64,000 nucleotides of DNA from an uncultured bacterium (GTDB taxonomy: Bacteria; Bacillota_I; Bacilli_A; RFN20; CAG-826): the NCBI GenBank assembly GCA_949290395.1, contig CASERQ010000004.1, positions 12,457 through 76,456 of the forward strand. The letters run 5' to 3'. A program made the position numbers and the translations under genes. This document shows positions 17,706 through 52,802 of this stretch, piece by piece. Under the pieces are notes generated by a model. That model was given only the letters and a program-made list of their open reading frames with translations, was not told where the DNA came from and ran no database searches. Position 1 is the first letter of the stretch; each line of letters starts with the position of its first letter.

Positions 17706-17782
17706 GCATTAAAAGTTATACTTTTAATGATTTTTGATAAAGATTGCTATATAATTACTTCGATTTAGGAGAAATTATATTT

Positions 17783-30708: not shown

Positions 30709-30797
30709 TGGTGCCCGGGACCGGAATCGAACCGGTACGGTATTGCTACCACAGGATTTTAAGTCCTGCGCGTCTACCTATTCCGCCACCTGGGCAC
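30709..30797 (-). tRNA. tRNA-Leu (anticodon TAA), class II, CCA encoded
   Basis: Reverse complement gtgcccaggtggcggaataggtagacgcgcaggacttaaaatcctg...ggttcgattccggtcccgggcacca. Long variable arm. Confidence 0.85.
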
Positions 30798-30802
30798 GAT
30801 AG

Positions 30803-30878
30803 TGGTGATCCACTGGAGATTCGAACTCCAGACCCCTTGATTAAAAGTCAAGTGCTCTACCGACTGAGCTAGTGGATC
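30803..30878 (-). tRNA. tRNA-Lys (anticodon TTT), CCA encoded
   Basis: Reverse complement gatccactagctcagtcggtagagcacttgacttttaatcaagg...ttcgaatctccagtggatcacca. Confidence 0.85.
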
Positions 30879-30887
30879 ATATGTTAA

Positions 30888-30963
30888 TGGCTGGGGTGGC
30901 TGGACTCGAACCAGCGAAATGACAGAGTCAAAGTCTGTTGCCTTACCTCTTGGCTACACCCCA
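30888..30963 (-). tRNA. tRNA-Gln (anticodon TTG), CCA encoded
   Basis: Reverse complement tggggtgtagccaagaggtaaggcaacagactttgactctgtc...ggttcgagtccagccaccccagcca. Confidence 0.85.
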
Positions 30964-30971
30964 AGACCTTT

Positions 30972-31055
30972 TGGTGGGAGGGGGCAGATTCGAACTGCCG
31001 AACCCGAAGGAATTGATTTACAGTCAACCGCGTTTAGCCACTTCGCTACCCTCCC
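30972..31055 (-). tRNA. tRNA-Tyr (anticodon GTA), class II, CCA encoded
   Basis: Reverse complement gggagggtagcgaagtggctaaacgcggttgactgtaaatcaa...ttcgaatctgccccctcccacca. Confidence 0.85.
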
Positions 31056-31075
31056 GGCTATATATTTCACGTTAA

Positions 31076-31151
31076 TGGTGGATGTTACAGGGCTTGAACC
31101 TATGACCTCCGCCGTGTAAAGGCGATGCTCTCCCAGCTGAGCTAAACATCC
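31076..31151 (-). tRNA. tRNA-Val (anticodon TAC), CCA encoded
   Basis: Reverse complement ggatgtttagctcagctgggagagcatcgcctttacacggcgg...ggttcaagccctgtaacatccacca. Confidence 0.85.
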
Positions 31152-37878: not shown

Positions 37879-37963
37879 GCGCGAGTGGCGGAACTGGTAG
37901 ACGCGTACGTTTGAGGGGCGTATAGGTATTCCTGTGTGAGTTCGATTCTCATCCCGCGCACCA
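37879..37963 (+). tRNA. tRNA-Leu (anticodon GAG), class II, CCA encoded
   Basis: gcgcgag-tg-gcggaactggtagacgc...anticodon loop ttGAGgg...gagttcgattctcatcccgcgcacca. One A/C mismatch in the acceptor stem. Confidence 0.75.
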
Positions 37964-37976
37964 CTATAAATCTTAT

Positions 37977-38018
37977 CCCCTATTTCACTAGAAGTTGAAA
38001 TAGGGGTTTTCTTTTGCT
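37977..38018 (+). terminator. Rho-independent terminator after tRNA-Leu(GAG)
   Basis: cccctatttcac / gtgaaatagggg-like stem (cccctatttcactagaagttgaaatagggg) followed by ttttctttt. Confidence 0.7.
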
Positions 38019-38316
38019 TAAAAGAGAACTTCGAAAAATAACCGTTTCGAACTTTCTCGGACTTCGGCTCTTAAGATTTTAAAAGGTGAATGCTGTGTGT
38101 TTTGAAGCGATAATCTCGCAAAATTCATATTATTTTTAGAAAAACTACTTAAATTTGTGCTTTTAATATTTTAATTTAAGCTTCTAATAATTCGGACAAG
38201 TTCGATAATAAGTTCGAACTATGTTTTTGACTTCTAACAACCTTCCCAACAAAATATTTAAAATTCTATGCTAATATAATATTGAAAAAGAATTAATTAT
38301 TATTTTTGGGGATAAT

Positions 38317-38778
38317 ATGACTTTACAAGCAATCTCTAATTTAGAAAATTACATTACGACTATTATATTTGGATGTGTAGCAATTATTTATAATCTTTTA
38401 TTTTTAGTATTAGGTATTATTTTTGTTATCAAGAAAACTGATCTTAATTATACTTTTGGATATAGAAGTGCTTTTGCTTTATCTTCAGCAAATAGATGGA
38501 GATGGTGTAATAAAGTATTCTTTTTCTCTGTATTTATAACTCAACCAATATTTTTAATTATGAATGTTGCAATTTTTATAGTTTCCTTAATTTATACCTT
38601 GTCATTTGCTTGGATTGTTCTTTCTTTTGCGATATCAATAGCAATACTAATTCCTATATCACTATTTGTTGAAATATACGGAAGAAGAAAGTTTAAAGAT
38701 GAAGATATAGGAGAAGTTAAGCCTTTAATAGAAAACGAGCAATCTAAAAAGCAAGAGATTGATGAGTTTTGGAGCTGA
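38317..38778 (+). CDS. Hypothetical small integral membrane protein
   Basis: 153 aa, 3-4 predicted TM helices, charged C-terminal tail. First gene of the accessory island. Confidence 0.45.
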   Translation: MTLQAISNLENYITTIIFGCVAIIYNLLFLVLGIIFVIKKTDLNYTFGYRSAFALSSANRWRWCNKVFFFSVFITQPIFLIMNVAIFIVSLIYTLSFAWIVLSFAISIAILIPISLFVEIYGRRKFKDEDIGEVKPLIENEQSKKQEIDEFWS

Positions 38779-38864
38779 TTGAACTGTATTGAGCCGCTAT
38801 AAAGTCGAATAACAGCGATTATTGACGTTTTCAATACGAAATCGATATTTTCTGAAAATTAATT

Positions 38865-39893
38865 TTACTCAATAATCTCTTTTTGTTGTTTTTCATTTGT
38901 ATTCTTATTTTCATATTTTTTAATACTCTTAAAGCCAAAATAATAGAAATTTCTCAATCTATTAGATAACTCCTCATTATCTAAAACTAAAGCATCGCTC
39001 CCAAAACGTAAAAAGTATTGGAATAGTTGGTTAATAGAAGCCTCAAAATAGTAAATATCATCTTCAATTAATATTGGTTTAGGTCGATTAATAAATATTT
39101 TTGTATAAGACTTTTGGCCTTTTTTAGTTAATTTAATTTTACATTTTATTATCGGAGAATTTATAAAGTGTGGCTCGTTTTTATCTAGATCTTTCTCTAT
39201 TTTTTCCTTTAAAGATGGAGATAAGTTGTCCTTAAAAGATCTAGAAACTCGCAAATCTTTTAATTTATAGAGGTTAATTACGTTATATGTAGTGGATGTG
39301 TAATAAATTAAATAGGCAAATTGTCTATCTTTTGAATTAAAAATACCTAATGGAGACACTTCGTATTTTATTTCTGTCCCCTTGTTATTTATAACTTTAA
39401 AGAAAATTTGTTTGTTGTTTTTAATGGCACTTTTAATTAAATCTATTTCTTCTTTAAATATAATTCTTTCTCTTTCGTCTTGATTAAGCTTTGCGTATTC
39501 ATTAAATAATTTCCTCAAATAACCGCTTAGAGTAAAGATGTATGAGTACTCGCTATATTCAATATCAAGTAAAGCGCCTTCAGATTCTTTTGTTGATATA
39601 AATGTTAATTCGCAATCTTTTTTAGTATCTGATTCTTCGTTTTTTTCTTTTATTTTCAATATTTCATGAACTAAATCTTCCTTGTTTTTATTGTCTTTTA
39701 AAAGGAGAAGTAGGTTATTTTCAAGCTTGCTAATTTTACTATTGATTACTTCATAGTAATTAGAAATTAGTCGATTAATAAACCTATTTTTGTTTGAACT
39801 GCCATCATTTTTTGCAAATCTAAAAGCATCAATATCATTTAGTAATACTGAATACGTGTAATATGATAACATTACTTTATATTTGTGTGACAT
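38865..39893 (-). CDS. Hypothetical protein (342 aa)
   Basis: Long ORF with K/E/N-rich composition. No recognisable catalytic motif. Confidence 0.45.
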   Translation of the reverse strand: MSHKYKVMLSYYTYSVLLNDIDAFRFAKNDGSSNKNRFINRLISNYYEVINSKISKLENNLLLLLKDNKNKEDLVHEILKIKEKNEESDTKKDCELTFISTKESEGALLDIEYSEYSYIFTLSGYLRKLFNEYAKLNQDERERIIFKEEIDLIKSAIKNNKQIFFKVINNKGTEIKYEVSPLGIFNSKDRQFAYLIYYTSTTYNVINLYKLKDLRVSRSFKDNLSPSLKEKIEKDLDKNEPHFINSPIIKCKIKLTKKGQKSYTKIFINRPKPILIEDDIYYFEASINQLFQYFLRFGSDALVLDNEELSNRLRNFYYFGFKSIKKYENKNTNEKQQKEIIE

Positions 39894-40019
39894 AAGTATA
39901 TATTTTATCTACCTTTTATTTATTAAATTTATCAAATAGTACGATATTTATCAATAAAATTACATACTATATAATTTTTATTTTCTAGCATTTCACTTAA
40001 TAAAATTTACACTTATAAT

Positions 40020-40600
40020 GTTCATGTAACCTGATGAAGTTGGTCTTACAGACCGTCAGGATTCTTAGAATGTGAGTGGTTTAATAAGGATACTTGTTAA
40101 ATGACGAATATCTTATATAGAGATATATAAGGAAGGCTATTAAATTAACCTTATTCTAAGAAGTGCTTTTATTAAATTTTAAAAGTTAAAGCAACGAGTG
40201 ATCCGGATCTATAAGTGACTAAAAGCTAGCTGGTCCGCCATACTGCTAGTAGTGTGAGAGACTACCAGGTAAGAGGCAAACTCAATAAGGATCTCTGAGG
40301 TGACGTTTAAGCAATTAAACTATAAGGATTGCAAAGGTACGAGTAGCTAAATATAGACTCAGCTTGGCGAATGAATGGTTATCTTTTTAGGAAAGTAATA
40401 CCGACGTTTAGTGAAAGTTACTAGGTTTATCTAGTTTAATCTTTAAGTCTTCGATAGAAGATGGGGTTAGTAGTGTATAAGTCGCTCTTATACGCTTGGG
40501 CTAACTTCGATTAATGGCTGAAGAAACAGAGTTTAATAAAAGTAAGGCGAAGGCCTACGCTTTAAAAATATTTACCCATCAATAAATGGGTAAATATTTT
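40020..40600 (+). ncRNA. Candidate large structured RNA of unknown class (about 575 nt)
   Basis: Strong GC enrichment against AT-rich flanks; no ORF over 40 codons. Putative promoter (tttcac...17 nt...tataat at 40013-40018). Strong terminator aaaaatatttacccatcaataaatgggtaaatattttttt at 40563-40600. Confidence 0.4.
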
Positions 40601-40737
40601 TTTATTATTCGATTTCTTTAAGTAATATTTTATTGATTTAGTAAATGCCTCGTGACAGCATTTTCATGTTCATACAACTTCATGTTGCATCATTCTTCTT
40701 TAAATATATTGGATGATTTATAAATTTAATTTTTTAA

Positions 40738-40772
40738 AATGTCCAAAAATTCGGACATTTATTTTTTTGTAT
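40738..40772 (+). terminator. Hairpin + T-run (aaatgtcc aaaaattc ggacattt atttttttg), terminator-like
   Basis: 8-bp stem and T7 tract about 50 nt upstream of the FtsH-like gene. Could be an attenuator or the end of a short transcript. Confidence 0.45.
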
Positions 40773-40821
40773 TTAGAACGATAAAAAATCTGGTTTAGAT
40801 TTAAGGCAAGGAGATTTAGAA

Positions 40822-42051
40822 ATGGAAAAAAATGTATTCTTAAAAAACGTTTATGGTTATAAAAAGATTAAAGATGAGTTGTTCTTAATTAGAAGTTGGT
40901 ATCTAGATGAAAAAATTAAGGAAGAAAAGAAAGAGTTTCTTCCTAAAGGTATCCTTTTCTATGGTGAACCAGGCAATGGCAAAACTTTATTATTAAGGGA
41001 ATATTCAAAAAGCTTTGGTTTTAAGGTGTTTGTATTTGAAGGAAAGGAGGAAAACTTAAACAAGAATTTAATTAGTATTTACGAGAACGCCAAAAAAGAA
41101 AAAAATGCAATTGTTGTTATTGATGAATTAGATAGGTTGGTTAAAAGAGATGATAAATTAGAAAGAATCCTACAAACCCAACTTGATGGTCTTAATAACG
41201 AAGGAACTGTCCTCACTTTAGCAAGTGCTAACGATTACGATGCCTTGCCAGATGCTTTATTAAGAGAAGGTCGATTTGATAGAAAATTCTGTATTGATGT
41301 CGAAGATAAAAAAGATAATAAAGAAATTTTAGAAAAGCTTTTAAAAGAAAGAGAATTTAATATTAATGAATATGAACTTGAAGAATTAAACCTGCAATTA
41401 TTTGGTGAACCCATCAGTAAAATCAAATCCCTCTTGAATAGCGTATGCTTTAGATATGGGAAAAGTGCAAGCATTGATGATTTCTTAAAGGAATATTCTT
41501 TTAACGAATCAGGACATATTCAAGATGATAACTTAAATGTACCGGATTATGTTGCTGTTCATGAAGCAGGACACGCTTTATATGCAAAATTATTCGCTAA
41601 AAGATTAATTTTCTTAAGAGTAAATTGTAATAAAGAAGGTGGGAAAACGCACTGCTCTAGTTATGATAATATTCAAGACAGCGTTTATTGCTATAATCGT
41701 ATCGAAACGTCTCTTGCAGGAATGGCAGCAGAAGAAATTATCTTCGGCAAGCATAATGTTGGATGTAACAATGATATGAAAAAAGCATACGAAATGTCTT
41801 ATACAATTATGAATAATTCTATGCTTAATGGGTTAGATTTCTACTCACCAGCCCTTTATACAATTAATAACGGTCCTTCTGAATATGAAATGATGAAACA
41901 TGGAATTAGAACAAGTAAATTTATTGAAAAAGAGTTTAAACTCGTTAAAAAAAGATTAAAAAAATATAAAAAAGAAATCTTATTAATCGCAAAAATTATT
42001 AAAGAAAAGAGATGTTTGACTAGAGACGACATTAAAAATGTATTAGATTAA
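40822..42051 (+). CDS. Soluble FtsH-like AAA+ ATPase / M41 zinc-metalloprotease fusion (no TM or periplasmic domain)
   Basis: Walker A GEPGNGKT, Walker B VVIDELD, AAA arginine finger LREGRFDRKF (cf. FtsH RPGRFDR), HEXXH HEAGHAL, FtsH-like LAGMAAEEIIFG. aaggag SD. Confidence 0.8.
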   Translation: MEKNVFLKNVYGYKKIKDELFLIRSWYLDEKIKEEKKEFLPKGILFYGEPGNGKTLLLREYSKSFGFKVFVFEGKEENLNKNLISIYENAKKEKNAIVVIDELDRLVKRDDKLERILQTQLDGLNNEGTVLTLASANDYDALPDALLREGRFDRKFCIDVEDKKDNKEILEKLLKEREFNINEYELEELNLQLFGEPISKIKSLLNSVCFRYGKSASIDDFLKEYSFNESGHIQDDNLNVPDYVAVHEAGHALYAKLFAKRLIFLRVNCNKEGGKTHCSSYDNIQDSVYCYNRIETSLAGMAAEEIIFGKHNVGCNNDMKKAYEMSYTIMNNSMLNGLDFYSPALYTINNGPSEYEMMKHGIRTSKFIEKEFKLVKKRLKKYKKEILLIAKIIKEKRCLTRDDIKNVLD

Positions 42052-42084
42052 TTCAAAATGAGAATAAAAAAGAAGGAGTTAAAT

Positions 42085-43536
42085 ATGACATACGATATCA
42101 CTCGACTAGTAGAATTCGTGTTAAAAAAGTATAGTGATTATTACCATCCAATGTATAAGTCAGATGTACATAAAAAGGTTAATGAGTTAATTCGATTAGA
42201 AGACCACGAAGCAAAAGATATCGATAGAAAAACTATTTATAGTGCTATTGAAAAGCTAAAGAACGGGCCAAAAGAAACTAAAATTGTTGATTGTGAAAAC
42301 AAAAGAAAAATTTATTTCGATAATTGGGAAAAACTTAATGACTTTATAATTCTCTTTAGTAAACTTGATCCTGAAAATAAACAAGGGGCTCTAGATTTAT
42401 TTAAGGATGAAATTAGCGAATACCAGTATAAGAATTTCCAAAATATCATCAATGAAAACTTTAATAAAAGTGGCGATATTTATAAAAGCAAAAGCCGAAT
42501 TCTTCGTGAAAATCAAAATAAAATTACAGATATTATTAAAGAAAGAAAATGTGCAAGAATTACCGATTTTAATGGAGACACAAAAAATATTATCCCTCGA
42601 GAAGTTTTATTAAATTCTGACGGCAATATTTGTGTTAAAGGAATCACATTTAACGATCAAAGAACTAGAGGAAAAGTAATGGCAATAGACTTTTCAAATA
42701 TTAGAGAAGTTGATGAGGTAAGTTTTTTTGACATCGAAGCTATTTGTGACAACGTATGTAGAAATGTGAATCCAGAGGATAAAAAGGAGATTAAAGAATA
42801 TTATTCAAAGATGAACTTCCTTTCAACAGATAACTTATTTACTGCTGATTCAATTGAAGATATTTTAAAGAATGAAGATTTAAAAATTTATGTTGAAGAT
42901 GAAGTCATGTATTATTCTTATTCAACCGACGAATTAGATTTTGATCTTTTTTTCGATTTTATGAATGAGAAATTGGGTGAATTCAAAAAGAATGATAAAT
43001 TACTTAATAAAATAAAAAAAGTCTTCTATTCATCATTATTTTTGCAAAATAATAAAGGTGACAATTGCTGGGAAGACAAAAAGAGTATTGCTGAAGATTT
43101 AAACGATCTTGCAAAGATTACAGAATACGACATCGTCTATTATTCAATTCTAAAAAAACTATATGTTGATGGGGATAAATATGAATGCGCGAAAGCAATA
43201 GAAGTAGATAAACTTATTAAACGTCCTAAGCAATATGTTTCTGATTATGATGAATTCGATACATTAGCTAGTGTTACATGTGCTAAAAGAAGGATTGACT
43301 GGGCCTTATTCTTGGTTCACCAAAACACCCATTTTCTTTGTTATAAAGGCTGCGACAAAAAAATATTTAAAAAATTAATTTTGCTGGTCGAAGAAAATTG
43401 TGAATTTAACTCTTACCTTATGACTATTCTTAAATCTGCTTTAGAGAAAGCGGGAATCGTTGTATTAAAGAATTCTCAAGCTGACAATTTAGAAGAAATT
43501 AAAAAAATGTATTTCAAATACTTTGATATTGAATAA
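42085..43536 (+). CDS. Hypothetical protein co-transcribed with the FtsH-like gene; N-terminal wHTH-like segment
   Basis: Begins 34 nt after the upstream stop with gaaggag SD. N-terminus RKTIYSAIEKL resembles the HTH of DeoR/WYL-type regulators; the rest has no recognised domain. Confidence 0.45.
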   Translation: MTYDITRLVEFVLKKYSDYYHPMYKSDVHKKVNELIRLEDHEAKDIDRKTIYSAIEKLKNGPKETKIVDCENKRKIYFDNWEKLNDFIILFSKLDPENKQGALDLFKDEISEYQYKNFQNIINENFNKSGDIYKSKSRILRENQNKITDIIKERKCARITDFNGDTKNIIPREVLLNSDGNICVKGITFNDQRTRGKVMAIDFSNIREVDEVSFFDIEAICDNVCRNVNPEDKKEIKEYYSKMNFLSTDNLFTADSIEDILKNEDLKIYVEDEVMYYSYSTDELDFDLFFDFMNEKLGEFKKNDKLLNKIKKVFYSSLFLQNNKGDNCWEDKKSIAEDLNDLAKITEYDIVYYSILKKLYVDGDKYECAKAIEVDKLIKRPKQYVSDYDEFDTLASVTCAKRRIDWALFLVHQNTHFLCYKGCDKKIFKKLILLVEENCEFNSYLMTILKSALEKAGIVVLKNSQADNLEEIKKMYFKYFDIE

Positions 43537-43820
43537 TTAGAATGGTAGAAATTGTCAACGTGTGAAGAACAAAACTTTAAAAAATTTGAGAAATTGTTTT
43601 TATTTCTTAAACTATTTCAGGAATTAAATCTTTAATAAAATCAGTAGTTTCATATGTGATAGGTAAAGATAGTAAGCCATTAAAAATTTGCTTATTCAGC
43701 ATTTTAGTCTAACTAATTCAAAATATAAATTGAACTTAGCTTATGCTATTTTAGAATCATAGTAAAATCCATGTTATTCATTAATTTATATTTAAGAATT
43801 ATGTATGAAAGGAGCATGTT

Positions 43821-44636
43821 ATGGAAAAAACAGATTTTATGAAACTTATAATAGATAATGTTTCAAATTTTAAAGGCAGCGTTGGAAAAAGGTACCTTTC
43901 ATGGGAATATTGTTATGAAGAATTTTATAAAGCGATAGAAGATGTAAAAAACGGGAAAAGCATTGATAATAATAGATATTTATATCTGAGTCTTCATTTA
44001 GCATTTTATCTTGCTTCCTGGGGCATGTATCGAGGATCTTCGTTTCTTTTGAAATTCGACTATAAAGTTCATTTACCAACAGTAAAATTGATTTTAAATG
44101 AAAAATATTCTTCATTGCTTTGTTTTAATCGGGACAAAACAGCCAAGAATTATAATCAAAATTTGGAACTGTTATTTGGGAAGGATGGCAATGAAGGTTT
44201 GGTGCAGGAAATTAAAGACATCTATCTAAAGTTAAAGTTAGAAGTAAAAAATTCTAAAAATAATAGCACAATAGTTAGTGTTAGCGATGAAACCGATGCT
44301 AAGGAAAATAGCGATGAATATGTATCTGAGATCTTAGTAAGTAAGATTTTATTGGGAACTTTAGGGTGTGTTCCTGCATACGATACTATGCTAAAAAGAG
44401 CTTTAAAATCAGCAAGAGATGATTATGGACTTAAAATTTGTTCTAAGTTCGGAAAAAAATCTATTGAAAGCATAGTTGGATTTTGTAATGACATGAAAAA
44501 GTTGCTTGATAATAGAGAAAAAATATTTTTAGAAAACAATGTTAAAATAGAATATCCACTGATGAAAATTTTAGATATGGGTCTTTGGGAAATTGGAAAA
44601 CAAGAGATTGACAAAGAAAAAGAGGGAACGAAATGA
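43821..44636 (+). CDS. Hypothetical protein (271 aa)
   Basis: aaaggag SD. No motif recognised. Confidence 0.45.
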   Translation: MEKTDFMKLIIDNVSNFKGSVGKRYLSWEYCYEEFYKAIEDVKNGKSIDNNRYLYLSLHLAFYLASWGMYRGSSFLLKFDYKVHLPTVKLILNEKYSSLLCFNRDKTAKNYNQNLELLFGKDGNEGLVQEIKDIYLKLKLEVKNSKNNSTIVSVSDETDAKENSDEYVSEILVSKILLGTLGCVPAYDTMLKRALKSARDDYGLKICSKFGKKSIESIVGFCNDMKKLLDNREKIFLENNVKIEYPLMKILDMGLWEIGKQEIDKEKEGTK

Positions 44637-44940
44637 AGAAGAAATACGTCAATTTTCGCACTTTTATTCGCATGCATTCCTTCTAACGTTTTGCTGAAAA
44701 TATAACAAAGCCTTTAAATTGATTTATTTAGTTAAATTGTAACTTTGCTTGTTAGAGCAATACTGGGTTCTTAGAAGAAAAATAAATAGGAGATGTTGTT
44801 GCCAAGGCTTTTAAAGTAATTTTAGGGCAGTTTAGATAAAATTAATTAATTTAAAATAAGGTACGTTAAAAGTAAAGTTAATCTCATAGAATAAAATAAT
44901 ATTTTGGGAAAAATTAAAACTTTTGATTGGAGTAAAGCTT

Positions 44941-45702
44941 ATGACACAAAAAGTAATTGTAGAAAATGTTGAAATGGAGAAGATATCAAAATTATTAGAG
45001 TTAAAGGAAGAGTACTTGTCCACCCTTGATGATAAAATATACAATAGTTTACTTGTATTAAGGAAATATTTAGAAGTCGATAAATCTTATAATGGTAAAT
45101 TTACGACCTTTAAATATAACAAGAATACGAAATTAATTATTGTTGGCACTATAACTCCGCCAGAAACTGATTTTTATTACTGTAAATATAGCAAGAAACC
45201 AAATTATAATACTTTGAATTATTTATTCGACTATTATAAAGACAAAGTCACTTTAATAGAGGATGAAAGATACAAAGAAGATATAAACAATTTAAAAAAG
45301 GATCTTGCAAACGATAAAAATAATAAAAATTATTATATCGACTTGTTAATAAATGCGCTTAATGATAGAGGGGTTTTATTCTTGGATGTAGTCAAAAAAG
45401 TTTTGAGACCTGCTTCCTCTAAAGATGCAGATTTTGTTTGCTTATCTTTGGATTGGGAAAGTTTTTTAGAACCTTTAAAAGATTTTTTTGCTAAGGATTC
45501 GTCGCTTAAGATTGTTACAAACAGCTTAGATGCTGAAGGTTATTTTAAAAAAATAATCAAAAAAGTGAATGTTAAAACAGGATCTAATTATAAATTTAAA
45601 GAAAATATGAAGAATTACAAACGTCTCACACAAATAACAAGGGGAGAAAAAATGAAAAACAAGAATAAAGAAGAACGGGGGGAATTATTAAGTAGCTTAT
45701 AA
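44941..45702 (+). CDS. Hypothetical protein (254 aa)
   Basis: Start at MTQKV (ggag SD). Lys/Asn-rich C-terminus. Confidence 0.4.
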   Translation: MTQKVIVENVEMEKISKLLELKEEYLSTLDDKIYNSLLVLRKYLEVDKSYNGKFTTFKYNKNTKLIIVGTITPPETDFYYCKYSKKPNYNTLNYLFDYYKDKVTLIEDERYKEDINNLKKDLANDKNNKNYYIDLLINALNDRGVLFLDVVKKVLRPASSKDADFVCLSLDWESFLEPLKDFFAKDSSLKIVTNSLDAEGYFKKIIKKVNVKTGSNYKFKENMKNYKRLTQITRGEKMKNKNKEERGELLSSL

Positions 45703-46070
45703 ATCTTTTTTAAAACTATTGCCGATTTCTTTCTTATTTTTCTTAATATAACTTTAAAAATAATCTATAGAAGTTATGCCTGAAAATTAAACAAATTAAA
45801 TTCGATGTATTATTAAAAATATATTGGTGGTTGCATCTTTTTATGTTTTTATAATTAAACAAATTAAGAGATATAATTTATAAATGATTAGTGAAGATTA
45901 ATCTAAATATTGGGAATGAAAATATTCCTGTTCCCGTCAAATCAATACCATAAGAGTGCACATAAAATTTGCATTATTTTCTTAATAATGTACATATATT
46001 AGAACATTTTGGGATGTTTTCAGTTTTTATTTTCCTAAAGCCTATAATGTATCATGCAGGAGGAAAATAG

Positions 46071-46697
46071 ATGATATTCAGCAGTGAAATTAAATTAAAA
46101 AGTTATATTGAAGTTCTTAAAAATGAACCTTTAAATGCGATTATTGAAGAATATAAAGGTTTTGTTAAACTCACAGATGTTGTTGATTTTTTTATAAAAA
46201 GAATAGCTTTTACATTTGCAAAAATTTCTAAAGAAATTAAAAACTATTATATTAAAGATAAGAATTTTAAAGAATTAGAAAAATATTCATATAATATATG
46301 TCACCGAGCTTATTTAAGACTAAATAATCTGGATTTAATCTTAAAAAATCAAAGTTTTGAAAAGTTGATTGAATTATATAAAGACTCTGTTATTAGTAAA
46401 GTTCCCGATTTATCAAACAAAGCAAGCATGTTGAAAGATATAAAAAGACTTTATAATGTTTATTTTGAACGTAATGGTAAATTTAGTGAACTTAAAGATA
46501 AAATATTTAGGGCTAAAGCCGTCTGTCTAGCTTGTTTAGAAAAATTTGGGGTAAAAATTCCTAATACAGAAGGACTTTTTATGCACGCTTTTGTCGCGGA
46601 TTATTTTTATGAAACAGAAGCTCTTAAAAAGGCTAACGCACTTGCAGAAGACTTTTATTTATTAGAATTATTTTCTATTTGCTCGAGTTTGAATTAG
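46071..46697 (+). CDS. Hypothetical protein (208 aa)
   Basis: caggagg SD and TATAAT box upstream. No motif recognised. Confidence 0.45.
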   Translation: MIFSSEIKLKSYIEVLKNEPLNAIIEEYKGFVKLTDVVDFFIKRIAFTFAKISKEIKNYYIKDKNFKELEKYSYNICHRAYLRLNNLDLILKNQSFEKLIELYKDSVISKVPDLSNKASMLKDIKRLYNVYFERNGKFSELKDKIFRAKAVCLACLEKFGVKIPNTEGLFMHAFVADYFYETEALKKANALAEDFYLLELFSICSSLN

Positions 46698-46715
46698 AAT
46701 TTGTGGAGGTTGTAG

Positions 46716-47429
46716 ATGCTTTATATTGATTATGTTATTAAAGAAAGATATATAAACGAAACATTTAAAAATATTACTAGAAATGAAGATGCTTTAGATA
46801 CATTGAATAAAGAGTCATTTAATTTGCGTGTTCAAAAAAATCTTTTAAACGAAGTATACCTCGATCTATTAGCGTTCTTAGATAAGTTATTAATTTCAGG
46901 CAGAAAATATAATGGTCCTGAAATTTATGATTATAAAGAAATATTAGAAGAATTTCTTAAAAATATCAAAATGAAAATTCATGAAACAAATACAAATCTT
47001 CATAAAGCAACTCATATTGAAGTTAGTTTATTTAATTGTGTTGATGTAAATGAAGATTTGATTATTTATAAAAGATTCATCAAATTCAATAAATTTCCTA
47101 AATATTTAAAGCAGAAAAATATAGATGATTATAAGTTGTTTCTATCTTGTGAATTTGATGATTGCTTTGGCGCAGGCGGACTACTTACTAAAATAAAAGG
47201 TGTAATTACTGATCTTAGCGATTATGTAGAGCTATTTGAACAACAAGTGATCGACAGCAAAAGTAAACTTGAAGAAGCATTAAGTAACTGCAAGTATTTC
47301 ACAAACGACCTTCCAGTGTTAACAAGAGGAAGCAGTTTTGAGATGCTTTATTCATTTTTACTCACGAAATTATTAAATGGATTAAAGAAAATATATAACG
47401 AAGGAGTTGGTTATGTGACTCTGAATTAA
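46716..47429 (+). CDS. Hypothetical protein (237 aa)
   Basis: gtggagg SD, 18 nt after the previous stop (co-transcribed pair). Confidence 0.45.
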   Translation: MLYIDYVIKERYINETFKNITRNEDALDTLNKESFNLRVQKNLLNEVYLDLLAFLDKLLISGRKYNGPEIYDYKEILEEFLKNIKMKIHETNTNLHKATHIEVSLFNCVDVNEDLIIYKRFIKFNKFPKYLKQKNIDDYKLFLSCEFDDCFGAGGLLTKIKGVITDLSDYVELFEQQVIDSKSKLEEALSNCKYFTNDLPVLTRGSSFEMLYSFLLTKLLNGLKKIYNEGVGYVTLN

Positions 47430-47542
47430 TTTTGCATTATTAAATAACTTTTAATGCGCTTTAAAATGAAAATATTTTTGAAGCAATATTTTGTTATTCA
47501 TGATTAATCTTTAATATGAAAATTGAAAGGTAATTAAATAGA

Positions 47543-48118
47543 TTGAATCAATTATTAAAAATTATAAAAGAAAGGAGTTTTATCATTAAAATAATTTTAT
47601 TGGATAGAAACTATATGATGGTTTTAGCACGGCAAAAATATTTTGAGAGTGAAAAAGAAGTTGAAATAGTTTGTGATGCAGTAGAACATTATTTATCAAA
47701 AAACTTTGTTGATGGAATCGTAACTCCGGGAAATTCTTATGGAATAATGACTGGCGGCTTTGATAAAGGTATTAGAAATTATTTTGGTTTGGCTTTAGAG
47801 AATAAAATCCAAAATTATATAGATTCAAATTTGCATTTTAAACAACAAGTTGGAACAAGTTTTATTATTGAAGGTGGCAAAAATAATATTAAAGTTATTC
47901 ATACACCTACAATGGAAGAACCTTCTGAAATTAAAGATTTAAACGTAATTTACCTTTCCACTATGTCTTCTTTAAAACTTGCAAAGAAAAACGATTTAAA
48001 TTCTGTAATTCTCCCTGCTTTTGGTGGAGCAACAGGGAAAGTAAATTTCTTTAAAGTTTCTGAATTAATGTATAAAGCTTTCAAAGATTTTAAGAAGCAA
48101 TCACTTAAATGCGTGTAA
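47543..48118 (+). CDS. Macro-domain-like protein (putative ADP-ribose binding/processing)
   Basis: VDGIVTPGNSYGIMTGGFDKGIRNYFG aligns to the macro core [27 protein letters not shown] (N-G-GG-D-G-I-G positions conserved). Start uncertain: TTG 47543 or ATG 47615. Confidence 0.45.
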   Translation: MNQLLKIIKERSFIIKIILLDRNYMMVLARQKYFESEKEVEIVCDAVEHYLSKNFVDGIVTPGNSYGIMTGGFDKGIRNYFGLALENKIQNYIDSNLHFKQQVGTSFIIEGGKNNIKVIHTPTMEEPSEIKDLNVIYLSTMSSLKLAKKNDLNSVILPAFGGATGKVNFFKVSELMYKAFKDFKKQSLKCV

Positions 48119-48184
48119 AAATAATTTAAAAGGGTTATATTGTATTGAAAGGTTATTGAGTAATTTTGATTAAAAAATTATATT

Positions 48185-49411
48185 ATGAGTAAATTTTCAA
48201 CAAGTGAAATTCATCGCATTGAACTTTTAATCACTATTTCTTATTTATTAAAATTTAGTGATTCAAAACATCCTGTTTCGCAACTTGATATTTGTCGTTA
48301 TGCTACAAATTTTGGTTTGAAGTTTGATGAAAATAATCTTGCTGGAAATGACATTAGAAGACAAAGAATTAAAGATGTTTTAGTTTTTCTTGAAGATCTT
48401 TCGAATAGAAATTTCATTGATTTTCCTTTTAAAGTTTTGTCTACGGATAAAGGAAAATATTATATAGAGAATAAGTTTCGTCTTTCAAAAGGGGATATTT
48501 TTAATGTTGTTTTATCTATTGAAAATAATAGGTACATCAAAGACGAAGTGTCGAAAGACTTAATTGATAAAATATTAAACATTTTATCTTCAAAATATGA
48601 AAAAATCGATTTTGAGGCTACATTAAAACAGGTAATTTCTCCAAAACGCAAGTGTTCGAATTATACAGCAGCATCCCTTAGTAAGTTGATGAATGCCATA
48701 AAAAAAGAGAGAATAGTTCAGCTAAGGCAATTAAAATATGAATATGATGAGATTAAAAAAGATTTCATTTTAAAAGACGTGAAAAAATGGTATCGAGTTT
48801 ATACAATTAAAGAATATAATGGCAAATTATATGCTTTGTTAATTGCTGTTGTTGATGGGGAAATCATTTTAGAGGACGTTAGATCTATCTACATTACAGG
48901 TCAAAAAAAGCGGACTTTTGCAGAAGATTTCGTTAAAAATAGAGATTTAAATCGTTTATTTATTGAAAATAACGTTAACGGAAAATCGATAGATGCTTAT
49001 ATAAAAGAAGCTAAAATGCCTTTAAATCCAAATACAAAGAAGATATCTTTCTCTTTTAAAGGATTGTATTTAAGAATGATAGAAACATCGTTTAGAGATT
49101 ATTTTTCTGAAACTTTAAATTTTGTAATTTGTAATGATTTTAAAATTGAAAATACGGGCAATGAGACAAGACTTATTAGTTTAGATTCTCAATCTTCGGA
49201 AAAACTGACGGAGAAATACATGTTATCTAAAATAATTGATGAGAACATTAACGTCATTGTCAATATTTCAATTAATATGGACGGCTTTACAAATTGGATA
49301 TTATCCAATCCATTGATACCGCAAATAATTACAGTTTATAATGGTCATATAAATAAAACTTTAGCTCAACATTTTCAAGCGTTAGCAAAGAAATACGAAA
49401 AATATCTATAG
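48185..49411 (+). CDS. Hypothetical protein with N-terminal HTH-like and central WYL-like beta-rich segment (putative regulator)
   Basis: N-terminus IHRIELLITISYLLKFSDSKHPVSQLDICRYATNFGL is HTH-like. KWYRVYTIKEYNGKLYALLIAVVDGEIILEDVRSIYI resembles the WYL core (WYL...RxFRLDRI). Confidence 0.35.
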   Translation: MSKFSTSEIHRIELLITISYLLKFSDSKHPVSQLDICRYATNFGLKFDENNLAGNDIRRQRIKDVLVFLEDLSNRNFIDFPFKVLSTDKGKYYIENKFRLSKGDIFNVVLSIENNRYIKDEVSKDLIDKILNILSSKYEKIDFEATLKQVISPKRKCSNYTAASLSKLMNAIKKERIVQLRQLKYEYDEIKKDFILKDVKKWYRVYTIKEYNGKLYALLIAVVDGEIILEDVRSIYITGQKKRTFAEDFVKNRDLNRLFIENNVNGKSIDAYIKEAKMPLNPNTKKISFSFKGLYLRMIETSFRDYFSETLNFVICNDFKIENTGNETRLISLDSQSSEKLTEKYMLSKIIDENINVIVNISINMDGFTNWILSNPLIPQIITVYNGHINKTLAQHFQALAKKYEKYL

Positions 49412-49816
49412 GCATAATTTTTGAGTTTATTTTTACTAAAAATTAGTATAAAAAGCGCCGACGTTGGTAGTCTTATATTCCCAAATGTGACGCTTTTTAT
49501 TTTATTTTTATCACTTACCTTTTTAACTAAAAAATGACTTAAGTTCAATTTGTGCTTTTTTATTTTTTGAATATTTTAGTTGCTACATCAAAAACACCAT
49601 CTAAATATTAATGGTTATATATTTAATTTTTGTTCACTTCTATGAACATTTTTGATTTTAAACGCAAATAAGTTCATTTAATAATTAAACTATCATCAAG
49701 GAGGAATGAATTGCAAATTGACTTAAATTTACATAAAAACTTTTAAATAACAAAAAACAACCAAAAATCAATTTTATGAAAGTTTTGCATGGTTTTCGTC
49801 TATTTATTTATAGAAA

Positions 49817-50110
49817 ATGAAATTGGAGTTTGAGATTAGTGATGATGATTACAAAATGCTGCAAAAGTATTTTTCTCTAAACGGAGAAACCTTAGAAAGC
49901 ATTATTCAAAGTAAAATCAAAGAAGGTCTAAAAAGTATAGAAACAATTAAAAAAGAGAATGAAAAAAATAAAGTTGCGATGAAAATTATAAAAAATATAA
50001 AAGAGAGGAGACTTGTAGATTTGAGTATTGTCAAAATACAAAAAATATATAATATAGGTTTTCCGCTTTCGGGAAAGATATATTTTTATCACAAGTTGTT
50101 CGTTGAATAG
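49817..50110 (+). CDS. Hypothetical small protein (97 aa) immediately upstream of the second FtsH-like gene
   Basis: ORF ends at the second FtsH-like gene, 38 nt before its start at 50151. No SD. Helical, K/E-rich. Confidence 0.35.
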   Translation: MKLEFEISDDDYKMLQKYFSLNGETLESIIQSKIKEGLKSIETIKKENEKNKVAMKIIKNIKERRLVDLSIVKIQKIYNIGFPLSGKIYFYHKLFVE

Positions 50111-50150
50111 TAAATATAGATTATTAAAAAAAGAAAGGAAATTTATAGAT

Positions 50151-51482
50151 ATGGAGAATCAAAAAGTTTTTGGCAAAGTAATTGGTTGTGAAACGCAAAT
50201 TAATGAGTTAATTAATATTATTAACTGGTTTAAAAATAGTGAGAAAAACAAAATGAAGGGACTAGATGTACCTAGAGGTATTATTCTTTATGGAAAGCCA
50301 GGAAATGGTAAATCATTAATAATGAGAGAATTAAAAAATTATCTGAGTGATACTCCATGCTATGTTTATAATCGCGAGTCTTTCAATGTCGTCAAAGAAC
50401 TTAATAATCTCTTTCAGAAAGCAAGCTTAGACAGTAAAGCTGTTATTTTAATCGATGAATTAGATTTATTAATTGACAAAGATAAAAGTGTAGTTAGATG
50501 TTTACAAGAAAATCTCGATGGAATCGAAGAAGTTAGTAAAAATATATTAGTAGTCACGGCTTGTAACTATTTATACGATATACCTGAGCCTCTAAAAAGA
50601 AGAGGAAGATTATCGTCATTAATTGCTTTTTCTTGTCCCAACACAGACGAAATTATCAAGCTTGTTAAAAATCAGATTGATAAATATGGTCTTAATAAAG
50701 AAATAGCTGAAGATGATGAATTGATTAATGCTTTTAATGGTGATTCATTTGTAACTATTAAGTCGATGATTGATGAAACGATTTTAACAAAGGGATCTTT
50801 TGATATAAATAGTGACGATATTATTGAAACTATATATAAATATGAAAATGGATCGATTAAAAATAAAGAAAAATCTCCATTTAATGTCGCAATACATGAA
50901 GCTGGTCATATTATATTAAATTTAAAGTATGCTCACGCAAATAAATTAAGTGGGGTAAAAATTAATGGCGGTCAAGGTTATTGTGTTTCTAAACAAACAA
51001 ACGAGTCAACTAAATATAGTGATTTTTTAAATAGGGCAGAAATTTTCTTGGCTGGGAGACAAGCCGAAAGAATTTTCTTCAAAGAAGGTAGTATTGGATG
51101 TAGCGATGATTTAGAAAGTGCAAGGCACATTGTTTATTCACTTGTTAATAGTTGCGGCTATTTAGGTTTAGGGTATGTACTTCCTAAAGAACATAATAGA
51201 AATCATAGTGTCTCTGCTTTCAAACTCAATAAGAACGAAAAGAAAGAAGAAAAAATTCTAAAAAGATTAGACAAAAAAGTTTACCGATATTTAAAAGGCA
51301 AAAAGAAATTGGTATATAATTTGGCTGAAGCTATTTACGAAAAAGGATATATGACAGCTAAAGAGATAAAAAGATTTGTTGAAAATTATTATAGTCGTTC
51401 TCAACAAAGCCTGCCTAATATCGAGAATAAAAAAGTTATACAACAAGAAATTTTTGATTTAAATAAATTGAAAGCTTTCTAA
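50151..51482 (+). CDS. Soluble FtsH-like AAA+ ATPase / M41 zinc-metalloprotease fusion, paralog 2
   Basis: N-terminus MENQKVFGKVIGCETQINEL parallels paralog 1 MEKNVFLKNVYGYKKIKDEL. GKPGNGKS, ILIDELD, HEAGHII, FLAGRQAERIFF. SD aaaggaaa; ORF-track TTG 50103 is less likely. Confidence 0.75.
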   Translation: MENQKVFGKVIGCETQINELINIINWFKNSEKNKMKGLDVPRGIILYGKPGNGKSLIMRELKNYLSDTPCYVYNRESFNVVKELNNLFQKASLDSKAVILIDELDLLIDKDKSVVRCLQENLDGIEEVSKNILVVTACNYLYDIPEPLKRRGRLSSLIAFSCPNTDEIIKLVKNQIDKYGLNKEIAEDDELINAFNGDSFVTIKSMIDETILTKGSFDINSDDIIETIYKYENGSIKNKEKSPFNVAIHEAGHIILNLKYAHANKLSGVKINGGQGYCVSKQTNESTKYSDFLNRAEIFLAGRQAERIFFKEGSIGCSDDLESARHIVYSLVNSCGYLGLGYVLPKEHNRNHSVSAFKLNKNEKKEEKILKRLDKKVYRYLKGKKKLVYNLAEAIYEKGYMTAKEIKRFVENYYSRSQQSLPNIENKKVIQQEIFDLNKLKAF

Positions 51483-51827
51483 TTTGCAAAAGTAAAACAT
51501 CTATTTAGCAATAGCGATTTCTGTAAAAGGTAGTAAAGTCATGCTACCTTTTTTTGTTTTTCTTTATAAACTTTTTTAAAAAAGATTTTTTTATATCGAT
51601 TTTGCGAGTTTTTTAGAATAAGCTTATAAAATATGAAACCAAAAAACTAATAATGTCTAAGATAAGGCAAACAATTGAATATCATAAAGAAATTACCATA
51701 AAAATTGATTTCGAACTGTGGTCTATAAGCGTTTCTTATTTTAGTTTTATTATCCTAGAGCGTTTTTTGTCGCTTATATAAAATCACATGCTTAGATAGC
51801 AGTATAATTGACCTTTGAAATTTATTA

Positions 51828-52367
51828 TTAACTTTTCTCGATTATTAAAAATAAGTCAATTTTACTTTCTTCTGCAATATTTATATTCTTGTTTGTATTA
51901 CTAACGGCTGCATACAAAAAGAAGTTAAAATATAAATTTTCTTTAAAATTCTTATTTGAAAAGATATTTGCTTTTAAATAATATTTCCCACTAGTGATAT
52001 TTAATATGGCTTCATTTTTGTCGATGACTAAATTAAAATCCCATTCATCATCAATCTTTGAATAAGATATATTTTGCAATTTAAGCTTACTCCATTCTTC
52101 GTTTGTTAACTCTTCTAATTGATTTATTAATCTAAAGAGATTTAAAATCTCATCGGCTTTTGCTTTAGCGTTTTCGTCGTTAAAGAACTTATCATCCATA
52201 CATAAGTAAGCTTCTAATGAATAAGGAAGCCCTAATTCACCAAATAAACTAAAGCTATATGTTTGTATTAAATTCTTAACATTATCTAAAAAAGAGCGAT
52301 AAGTAATATTAAAATCTAATGTTGTTATAAGTTCTTTGCTGTTTAGTAGCAAGGAGTATTTATTCAT
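51828..52367 (-). CDS. Hypothetical protein (179 aa)
   Basis: Single ORF on the opposite strand at the island's distal edge. Confidence 0.4.
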   Translation of the reverse strand: MNKYSLLLNSKELITTLDFNITYRSFLDNVKNLIQTYSFSLFGELGLPYSLEAYLCMDDKFFNDENAKAKADEILNLFRLINQLEELTNEEWSKLKLQNISYSKIDDEWDFNLVIDKNEAILNITSGKYYLKANIFSNKNFKENLYFNFFLYAAVSNTNKNINIAEESKIDLFLIIEKS

Positions 52368-52802
52368 ATTTTTTAATTTTAGTATTTTTATGGAAAATAG
52401 TTAAATATCTTCCACAAAACGGAATAGGTTCTTTTTTTGACTTATCAAGAAATGCTTTCATATTTCTAGTTAAGTTGTTATTTTTGTTAAGAACCTTATC
52501 ATCATTATGCACAATTCAAAGGGCTTTTACCATAAAAAAGTATTCAAATTTTACTATCTTTTGTTGCAATTACTTTGTTAAATTAAAAGGGTTTTGTTTT
52601 GTTTTTTTTAAGATTTGTGCGTTTTGTCAGGTTCAAATTCTCGTGCCATAAATATATTCATAAAAGCTTTGGATAAATTTATGGAGTGTATCCTTTATTT
52701 AATCGTTTGTGCTTGGATTGCCTCTTATTTATATCAATTTCTAAAAAGTCAAAAAAGTATATTTTTATAACTTTTATATACATGTAAGCGAAAATATCTT
52801 GT

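Follow-up and report, generated by a model that had tools for sequence, protein, structure and literature searches.

A WYL1-like gene paired with the ROOL RNA and FtsH-like AAA+/M41 proteins without pore loops in a strain-variable island of an uncultured Bacilli genome

The DNA analysed here is a 64,000-nucleotide (nt) window from an uncultured bacterium of the Bacilli (contig CASERQ010000004.1, assembly GCA_949290395.1; all coordinates are those of the window), which carries a strain-variable island of 13,939 bp (38784-52722) between a core membrane-protein gene and rhaB. Within this island we identified a homologue of the CRISPR accessory protein WYL1 that forms a conserved divergent pair with the ROOL RNA, with operator-like repeats between the two. 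The island also encodes two members of a distinct, previously undescribed family of soluble FtsH-like AAA+/M41 proteins that lack both pore loops and are linked to WYL-type regulators or, in other lineages, to S-box riboswitches. The pair and the family with its interchangeable sensors, which go partly beyond what an earlier sequence-only reading of the window had noticed, are the most valuable outcome of the analysis. We favour, as reasonably probable, a reading in which a hotspot island combines the WYL1-like/ROOL pair, two WYL- or S-box-linked FtsH-like effectors and defence-type cargo; it probably points to a new inducible defence module. The organisms concerned are gut and rumen Bacilli (RF39-like) that have been little studied and whose defence repertoires are mostly unexplored.

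The WYL1 homologue, WYL342 (342 residues, 38865-39893, minus strand), had been listed as a hypothetical protein, and both its family profile and its fold place it in the WYL1 family. It matches a PADLOC WYL model with an E-value of 1e-11. Its AlphaFold model (pLDDT 86.9) consists of two ribbon-helix-helix (RHH)-like beta-alpha-alpha units (residues 4-64 and 93-134), a WYL barrel and a WCX-like domain. The best Foldseek match is WYL1 (PDB 6OAW; E = 5.3e-17, TM-scores 0.66/0.59), which spans the full length and leads all other matches by ten orders of magnitude, whereas DriD, PafBC, CapW and BrxR cover only the C-terminal half. When the profile of the WYL342 family (32 clusters) was searched against the PDB, WYL1 was matched at E = 3.2e-25, with residues 7-325 aligned onto residues 26-390.

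Divergent from WYL342 lies a full-length ROOL RNA (Rfam RF03087; 40007-40576, plus strand), scored by cmscan at 195.5 bits against a gathering score of 99.1 and covering positions 1-574 of the 574-position model, with the conserved sequence blocks of the family present. A GC-rich structured RNA of about 575 nt had been proposed at this place. The length was nearly right (about 570 nt), but the RNA belongs to a known family and its GC content is 35%, in a window of about 29% GC overall. An intrinsic-terminator-like hairpin ends the RNA at 40564-40601 on the same strand.

The pairing is retained over a wide range of divergence. In eight lineages, down to 27% identity of the WYL protein, a divergent full-length ROOL scoring 174-213 bits begins with its 5' end 112-134 nt from the start codon of the WYL342 homologue (113 nt in the window and 112 nt in locus L005; loci are designated by L numbers). 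WYL identities in these pairs, among them the one in L116, range from 100% through 74% (L293 and L294), 55% (L291), 50% (L292), 45% (L298) and 44% (L297) to 27% in L299, and every WYL342 context examined down to 44% identity has ROOL except L296 (49%). Sequence identity of ROOL drops from 83% to 44% in step with the divergence of the WYL protein. Three of the ROOL-positive WYL lineages have no protease within 7 kb. No cas13d gene, Cas-like open reading frame (ORF) or domain, or CRISPR array was found in the island or in nine WYL342-homologue contexts, and we found no literature report of a WYL protein paired with ROOL. Two candidate relatives were discarded: LSL_1884, the neighbour of ROOL in L. 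salivarius, since tblastn gave no match on any L. salivarius plasmid, and a Fusobacterium WYL match, which lies directly after hflX with no room for ROOL and is unrelated to the cassette.

The 113-nt divergent control region between the two genes (39894-40006) contains several conserved elements. An operator-like heptamer, TATCTAC, is located at 39906-39912 in the alignment of the eight lineages, a 23-nt block (39940-39962) is invariant between the window and L005, and the promoter scan identified a promoter-like TTATCA-16-TATAAT at 39948-39975. A TAGTAT -10-like box precedes ROOL in the spacer alignment. The heptamer occurs at 13.8 copies per kb in WYL-ROOL spacers and at 0.10 per kb elsewhere in the same loci, an approximately 140-fold difference. 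Two copies are found 54-56 nt apart in five lineages, and a perfect GTAGATA-N3-TATCTAC palindrome is present in L292 and L297. We infer that a WYL342 dimer would bind the TATCTAC or GATA-N3-TATC repeats through its RHH units and gate the transcription of ROOL and of its own gene in response to a nucleic-acid ligand in the WYL domain. The ligand could be single-stranded RNA (ssRNA), as for WYL1, single-stranded DNA (ssDNA), as for CapW and DriD, or ROOL itself.

WYL342 may instead be mainly an RNA-binding partner of ROOL, acting as a cage-loading, stabilising or sensing subunit and not as a transcription factor, an alternative that we regard as possible, if on the doubtful side. Its closest solved full-length relative, WYL1, binds ssRNA with high affinity (PMC9122601), and other members of the ROOL family form homo-octameric nanocages by cryo-electron microscopy (cryo-EM), with disordered single-stranded linkers and no known protein partner (PMC12286853); the co-divergence of the WYL protein and ROOL fits such a partnership as well. 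The RHH-like N-terminal units and the positionally conserved palindromic and direct repeats of the spacer are, on the other hand, what is classically expected of a DNA operator. One role need not exclude the other, and the regulatory signal could be the binding of RNA by the WYL domain.

ROOL is among the largest and most elaborate bacterial non-coding RNAs. In the literature to 2026 it has neither a known function nor a known protein partner (PMC5737381, PMC12286853, PMC12990946). The WYL1-like gene is its first conserved protein partner, known here from gene linkage. With linkage at a fixed distance down to 27% identity, there is now a defined protein to purify together with ROOL and a regulatory switch that can be manipulated, and the role of ROOL therefore becomes directly testable.

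The second main finding concerns AAA409 (40822-42051) and AAA459 (50103-51482), both encoded on the plus strand and both matching Pfam AAA and Peptidase_M41. The two paralogues are 27% identical and belong to two subfamilies, both of them represented in the window, as judged from the split of the tblastn matches. Neither has a hydrophobic segment, the maximum 19-residue Kyte-Doolittle means being 0.79 and 1.21. Their description as FtsH-like proteases lacking a transmembrane region was correct as far as it went, but they are not simply FtsH without its membrane anchor, because both pore loops are missing too. We aligned nine family members with five genuine FtsH sequences. All nine lack the N-terminal transmembrane/periplasmic region, all nine have a 6-residue deletion that removes exactly the pore-1 loop F-[VA]-G-x-G, and all nine have an 11-residue deletion after Walker B, in the pore-2 loop region. 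Invariant in an alignment of 44 sequences are Walker A and B, the sensor-1 Asn, the arginines of RxGRFD, HExxH and the third zinc-ligand Asp. That the family has lost the pore loops and kept the ATPase and zinc-site residues implies that it acts without threading its substrates.

A database search with AAA409 delimited a family of about 80 clusters of proteins of about 410 residues with AAA and M41 domains and no transmembrane region, separated by a clear score gap from true FtsH. Against the NCBIfam FtsH equivalog TIGR01241, AAA409 scores 100.5 bits (cut-off 600). The AlphaFold model of AAA409, built from the family alignment (pLDDT 90.1, pTM 0.82), has apo-FtsH 3KDS as its best fold match (TM-scores 0.78/0.75), followed by AFG3L2 and YME1. 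All 39 family loci in the species-representative genome collection belong to uncultured gut or rumen metagenome-assembled genomes of Bacilli, "Mollicutes", Erysipelotrichaceae or Enteromonas. No literature report of an M41-type defence protease was found. A group II intron D1-D4 fragment (L026:5355-5519) and a DUF3800-XI RNA (L025:1766-1813) were observed a few kb from members of the family.

To these 39 loci the window adds one, and all-against-all clustering of the ORFs at the 40 loci identified a dominant partner. This is the family of h408 (408 residues, 48185-49411, plus strand), a putative divergent regulator of the BrxR/CapW type with predicted winged helix-turn-helix (wHTH), WYL and WCX domains, which occurs at 23/40 protease loci, usually adjacent to the protease gene. 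Proteins of the WYL342 type join the same superfamily by iterated search, yielding a WYL partner at 26/40 loci. Pfam WYL is matched by 13 and Pfam WCX by 8 of the 24 members of the h408 family, and h408 itself has no Pfam match; the consensus motif of the family suggests that its N-terminus resembles the BrxR-type wHTH. We found no literature report of a WYL protein paired with an FtsH-like one. One or two regulators of this kind had been expected in the island. There are three WYL-type candidates, namely WYL342, h408 and, weakly, the N-terminus of h492.

Between h408 and AAA459 lies h97 (97 residues, 49817-50110, plus strand), which overlaps the start of AAA459 and has no family match. The h408-h97-AAA459 block is present at 70-73% identity (73% for h408 and h97) in L042, where the rest of the island is missing, and these three genes therefore form a separable module. 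By eye, the N-terminus of h97 (LEFEISDDDYKMLQKYFSLNGETLESIIQSKIKEGL) is similar to an RHH antitoxin or regulator motif. Other loci also have small ORFs (families F10 and F15, and ORFs of about 100-176 residues) between the WYL gene and the protease, as h97 is here.

A different sensor takes the upstream position in other lineages. An S-box S-adenosylmethionine (SAM) riboswitch is found directly upstream of the protease in L024 (9843-9970) and L038 (9666-9754), and upstream of it with a 191-residue ORF between in L040 (9155-9243). All three aptamers are complete and score higher than the gathering threshold of Rfam. The L024 aptamer has a terminator/antiterminator behind it, about 25 nt ahead of the ribosome-binding site, and the next operon encodes the HsdR subunit of a Type I restriction-modification (R-M) system. 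The protease is a non-canonical target for an S-box, and its expression could respond to SAM depletion. We found no literature report of a defence gene controlled by a SAM riboswitch. A further complete S-box aptamer was observed directly upstream of an AAA-M41 family gene in L022 (4906-4989).

Neighbouring genes, out to 3 kb from the protease, encode among others GmrSD_N, McrBC, DpnII, cytosine and N6/N4 methyltransferases, ResIII/SWI2_SNF2 and DUF3427+PLD proteins, together with Fic, PDDEXK_4, AAA_13, AAA_14/DUF4143, ADP-ribosylglycohydrolase, NUDIX and Macro proteins, and housekeeping genes are interleaved among them. The protease family is linked to WYL regulators or S-box riboswitches in neighbourhoods rich in restriction genes, and the protease gene is the output of an upstream predicted sensor, either a wHTH-WYL-WCX regulator or, in other lineages, an S-box. 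With its FtsH fold, missing pore loops, WYL or SAM-riboswitch linkage and R-M-rich surroundings, the family is a candidate for a new class of inducible defence effector. The protein would act as an inducible, ATP-dependent metalloprotease, switched on by cues of the kind that infection produces (ssDNA or DNA damage, or SAM depletion), and might have an abortive or antiviral action by cleaving specific host or phage proteins and not by processive threading.

ROOL is located 0.2-3 kb from the protease at 4/40 loci (the window, L005, L021 and L024). Conversely, among 166 other ROOL loci sampled with a three-block pattern, 46 of them from viral contigs (IMG/VR) and most of them of phage type, none has a protease or a WYL342-type gene. 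ROOL therefore has no general partner in the protease, and an obligate partnership of the two was rejected. Two unrelated loci have S-box riboswitches next to ROOL. In L292 the S-box (6071-6158, minus strand) closely follows ROOL and precedes an N-formylglutamate amidohydrolase gene, and in L024 (9196-9970) it is divergent from ROOL across a 113-nt spacer. In L021 (10203-12305) a 700-residue AAA_13 ATPase, of a Pfam family that we take to include the PrrC/RloC anticodon nucleases, is encoded between the AAA-M41 gene and ROOL, and a second AAA-M41 paralogue is found 1.3 kb past ROOL.

The limits of the island were established from conspecific strains. An exact-sequence look-up of the PTAC protein encoded in the flank yielded a set of 10 contigs with the identical protein, whose alleles at the site were compared by blastn; the corresponding look-up of RhaA gave no entry. 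Five contigs are empty (L115, L117, L119, L120 and L121), with 38783 joined straight to 52723 and with flanks 97-99% identical to those of the window. These contigs keep the gene for a 153-residue membrane protein, followed immediately by rhaB. The variable segment is therefore 38784-52722, and the membrane-protein gene (38317-38778, plus strand; SdpI-like, with a sub-threshold Pfam SdpI match) is core, present in all alleles and outside the island. In the sequence-only reading this gene was counted as island content and the island was drawn at 37964-52650. That an accessory island exists is borne out, with the limits moved, and the comparison of related genomes that had been suggested did show presence/absence polymorphism. 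The count of 13 ORFs between tRNA-Leu(GAG) and rhaB also held (each at least 90 residues). The junction alignment shows the island in place of a spacer of about 50 nt that begins right after the stop codon of the membrane-protein gene.

Two further contigs have other alleles at the site. L116 has its sequence in common with the window up to about 42190 (WYL342, ROOL and AAA409) and has different cargo beyond: a MazG-like protein, a Schlafen-group-3 helicase, a 209-residue ORF and another WYL plus AAA-M41 pair. In L118 the insert lies slightly beyond this position and comprises a T5orf172 protein, two DNA methyltransferases and a DpnII endonuclease, an R-M cassette that enters about 70 nt beyond the window's junction. 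With three allele states at one site (five empty, one DpnII R-M cassette, one with other cargo), the site is therefore a hotspot at which accessory cargo of defence type is exchanged by recombination, and not the site of a tRNA-targeted integrative element. Adjacency to tRNA-Leu(GAG) (37879-37963, ARAGORN), 820 nt from the island, had been taken as a signature of such islands, but the tRNA is not the insertion site, because a core gene lies between, no direct or att repeats were found at the island borders, and nine other WYL-ROOL or ROOL-protease loci have no tRNA nearby. At 26.8%, the GC content of the island is below the 30.1% measured outside it in the window and ranks second lowest among 101 windows of 14 kb, but the GC content at third codon positions (GC3) is the same, so that of the compositional comparison suggested earlier only the overall GC sets it apart.

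Two other features of the region were observed. A cluster of five tRNAs (Leu-UAA, Lys, Gln, Tyr and Val; 30709-31151, minus strand) lies 7 kb from the island on the upstream side and is conserved among all conspecific contigs. L119 has an rve-family transposase and a 112-residue ORF beside an AAA_14/DUF4143 gene (17671-18411) that are missing in the other conspecific contigs, a second strain polymorphism, near the left flank of the window.

The island is a mosaic of three separable modules and not one system, because L042 has only h408-h97-AAA459, L291-L299 have only WYL-ROOL, and L116 exchanges the cargo after AAA409. The suggestion that the content might be an undescribed system therefore survives only in part: PADLOC recognises no known system, and the content is composite. 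The absence of an integrase or known defence system, also noted before, was confirmed with Pfam, PADLOC, PHROGs and NCBIfam, which recognised no R-M, CRISPR or toxin-antitoxin system in the island.

The same modules could belong to an accessory stress response, with a WYL regulon of the DNA-damage type (as for PafBC and DriD), proteolysis under stress or SAM starvation, and ROOL as a stationary-phase RNA. Consistent with this, DriD and PafBC are matched by the WYL-WCX domains at least as well as CapW and BrxR are, methionine/SAM metabolism is the classical setting of S-box control, L. salivarius builds up ROOL in stationary phase (PMC5643018), and several WYL-ROOL cassettes are found among ordinary metabolic genes. 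We consider this account unlikely. It is opposed by the strain-level presence and absence of the genes, the replacement of island genes by an R-M system at the same site, the abundance of restriction and abortive-infection-type domains among protease neighbours, the L024 S-box-protease unit that abuts HsdR, and the patchy, multi-copy distribution of the family, typical of defence genes.

A WYL protein and an AAA-M41 protein could also form a regulatory cassette in which the protease degrades the WYL repressor on a signal, as in CapP/CapH or ImmA/ImmR, and so switches on the downstream cargo. The pair is conserved while the genes next to it vary greatly, WYL342-ROOL-AAA409 is common to the window and L116, whose cargo differs from about 42190 onwards, and loss of the pore loops would suit a dedicated single-substrate protease. 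Three lineages, however, have a riboswitch-driven protease and lack a WYL protein that could be its substrate, protease genes stand in tandem with no cargo in between (L043 and L015), and the downstream genes are often on the opposite strand or housekeeping, and we think it quite improbable that the cassette works in this way.

That the island is a degraded prophage or integrative element inserted at tRNA-Leu(GAG), with ROOL as a phage leftover, is very hard to credit and a prophage remnant is largely excluded: ROOL has been placed in phages and prophages near tRNAs (PMC5737381, PMC12286853), 46 of the sampled ROOL loci are from IMG/VR and a tRNA-Leu gene is close by, but, besides the points on the tRNA given above, the entry point of the R-M allele of L118 is offset by some 70 nt from the window's junction, no family-level member of the protease family occurs in IMG/VR, no integrase, recombinase, capsid, tail or terminase was matched in the island with Pfam or PHROGs (the PHROGs matches being generic ATPase ones only), and the whole island had no megablast match in phage and plasmid collections and no tblastn match in the phage collection.

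The favoured reading, a hotspot island of WYL1-like/ROOL, sensor-linked FtsH-like effectors and defence-type cargo, has its own difficulties, and we set out here the points that count against it. The antiviral role is taken from genomic context only; the evidence for it is circumstantial and amounts to guilt by association, and of the earlier call of a defence or stress island it is the allele polymorphism and the defence-type neighbourhoods of relatives that stand. PADLOC and NCBIfam returned domain-level matches only (IetA, DarG and WYL; with PADLOC on the island proteins also AbiO and TRIP13). ROOL is missing beside two WYL342 homologues, in L296 and in L295 (30% identity), the latter having a divergent AAA-M41 gene in its place, and the sampled ROOL loci lacked both partner genes, as described above. 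Exact TATCTAC copies are missing from the spacers of L293 and L299, and the repeats could be promoter elements and not operators. At 14/40 protease loci, many on short contigs, neither a WYL gene nor an S-box was found near the protease. The 220-nt leader of AAA409, which contains a second terminator-like hairpin (40737-40760, plus strand), has no recognisable sensor element: no riboswitch or structured leader was found in Rfam at E <= 1, the fold z-score is -0.64, and the leader is not conserved in L005. Finally, loss of the pore loops could mean that the protein is an ATP-driven switch and not a protease in vivo.

Taken further, ROOL may be the RNA component of an inducible stress or antiviral module in which the WYL1-like protein senses a nucleic-acid cue, controls ROOL and perhaps loads or binds the cage. 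In some lineages the module would be wired to the pore-loop-less protease, which alternatively would be triggered through the S-box by SAM depletion, guarding against phage SAM-degrading anti-restriction enzymes. We offer this scheme tentatively and rate it as rather unlikely in its entirety. If it is true, ROOL would gain its first functional and regulatory context and a new family of protease-based defence would be added, and a defence-type gene under a SAM riboswitch would sense SAM depletion by phage anti-restriction in a way without precedent.

The remaining cargo is made up largely of orphans, for which PHROGs, PADLOC and NCBIfam gave nothing past domain-level AAA, Macro and WYL matches. 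The gene following AAA409, h492 (492 residues, 42058-43536, plus strand), is an orphan without a homologue in 41 loci; its N-terminus is weakly similar to the wHTH of the h408-family (F1) regulators (hhalign E = 2.5e-4, probability 43%), and the recombination breakpoint with L116, at about 42190, lies inside its 5' end. Next is h271 (271 residues, 43821-44636, plus strand), whose uncharacterised family is very large (more than 4,800 clusters at 90% identity) and has no Pfam model. A 49% identical homologue of h271 is located between SIR2+DUF5662 and AAA_21+RloB genes together with a MazG-like protein and a Schlafen helicase. DUF7662, which is N-terminal in some relatives of h271, was uninformative as a clue to it. 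The following three genes, all on the plus strand, encode h259 (259 residues, 44923-45702), an orphan without a family match in Pfam, PADLOC, PHROGs or NCBIfam, h208 (208 residues, 46071-46697), and h237 (237 residues, 46716-47429), an orphan translationally close to h208. The orphan h208 is 27% identical (E = 3e-5) to the T5orf172-domain protein of the L118 allele. Its assignment as a T5orf172 nuclease was rejected, since the pairwise match is weak, no GIY-YIG-like motif is evident and a strong jackhmmer E-value is an iteration artefact. At least one cargo protein of the third module, h271, and possibly h208 with its weak similarity, has relatives in other defence clusters. One more orphan, h179 (179 residues, 51828-52367, minus strand), is encoded at the island's right edge.

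The macro-like protein noted earlier is a Macro-domain protein (47543-48118, plus strand; probable true start at about 47615), with matches to Pfam Macro (2.5e-13) and the NCBIfam ADP-ribose-binding model (5e-13). It scores 19.2 bits against the DarG equivalog of NCBIfam (cut-off 250), and no DarT (DUF4433) was matched among the Macro neighbours with Pfam or PADLOC, which sets it apart from DarTG systems. The protein may bind or remove ADP-ribose beside the orphan genes. Macro genes are also found beside the protease in L005 (11320-12039) and L038 (11310-12068). Their presence in three lineages, with ADP-ribosylglycohydrolase and NUDIX genes in other protease neighbourhoods, hints at an ADP-ribose theme.

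As to transcription, the island had been described as many small units. Terminator-like sites are mildly enriched (8 against 3.2 +/- 1.9 expected), among them a hairpin after AAA459 (51525-51552, plus strand), but promoter-like sites are at chance level (100 against 94.3 +/- 8.9), and the sigma-70 scan was set aside as uninformative on this point in AT-rich DNA.

Each component of the island can be set beside a known system. WYL342 shares with WYL1 (RspWYL1, 6OAW), an accessory protein of type VI-D CRISPR-Cas13d systems, its full-length architecture of RHH units, WYL domain and C-terminal domain, and both come from gut Firmicutes; the two are only about 20% identical, and the conserved neighbour of WYL342 is ROOL instead of Cas13d. 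The ROOL family was reportedly described by Weinberg et al. in 2017, with cryo-EM nanocage structures following in 2025. The window's copy resembles known ROOL RNAs in its full covariance-model match, well above the gathering score, and in its terminal hairpin, and differs from them in being chromosomal, in a non-prophage strain-variable island outside tRNA arrays, and in its pairing with a WYL1-like gene.

The protease family has the same order of AAA+ and M41 domains and the same fold as FtsH/HflB (TIGR01241; 3KDS, 2CE7), AFG3L2 and YME1, but it has lost the transmembrane/periplasmic part and the pore loops of FtsH and is accessory, multi-copy and strain-variable. Among anti-phage systems, IetAS, which Gao et al. 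are said to have described in 2020, consists of the FtsH-like AAA+ ATPase IetA and the S8 protease IetS. It is similar in coupling an AAA+ ATPase of the FtsH/classic clade to a protease, and IetA models give the best matches in the PADLOC defence library (E = 1e-9 to 6e-11). Against the IetA equivalog of NCBIfam, AAA409 scores 28.3 bits (cut-off 510), no S8 or IetS-like gene was found in the island, and the protease here is a fused M41 metalloprotease and not a separate subtilase. As with BrxR, CapW, PafBC and DriD, the h408 family appears to combine a wHTH-like N-terminal signature with WYL and WCX and is encoded immediately upstream of a candidate effector. In contrast to BrxR and CapW, the gene controlled would encode an FtsH-like AAA+/M41 protein, and h408 is too divergent for Pfam. 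The site itself resembles the core-genome defence hotspots described, for example, in E. coli (PMC10121019), with conserved core flanks, alternative cargo that includes R-M, an empty allele and no dedicated integrase. It differs from them in belonging to uncultured low-GC Bacilli and in carrying, among its cargo, a structured RNA and families that current catalogues of defence systems do not contain.

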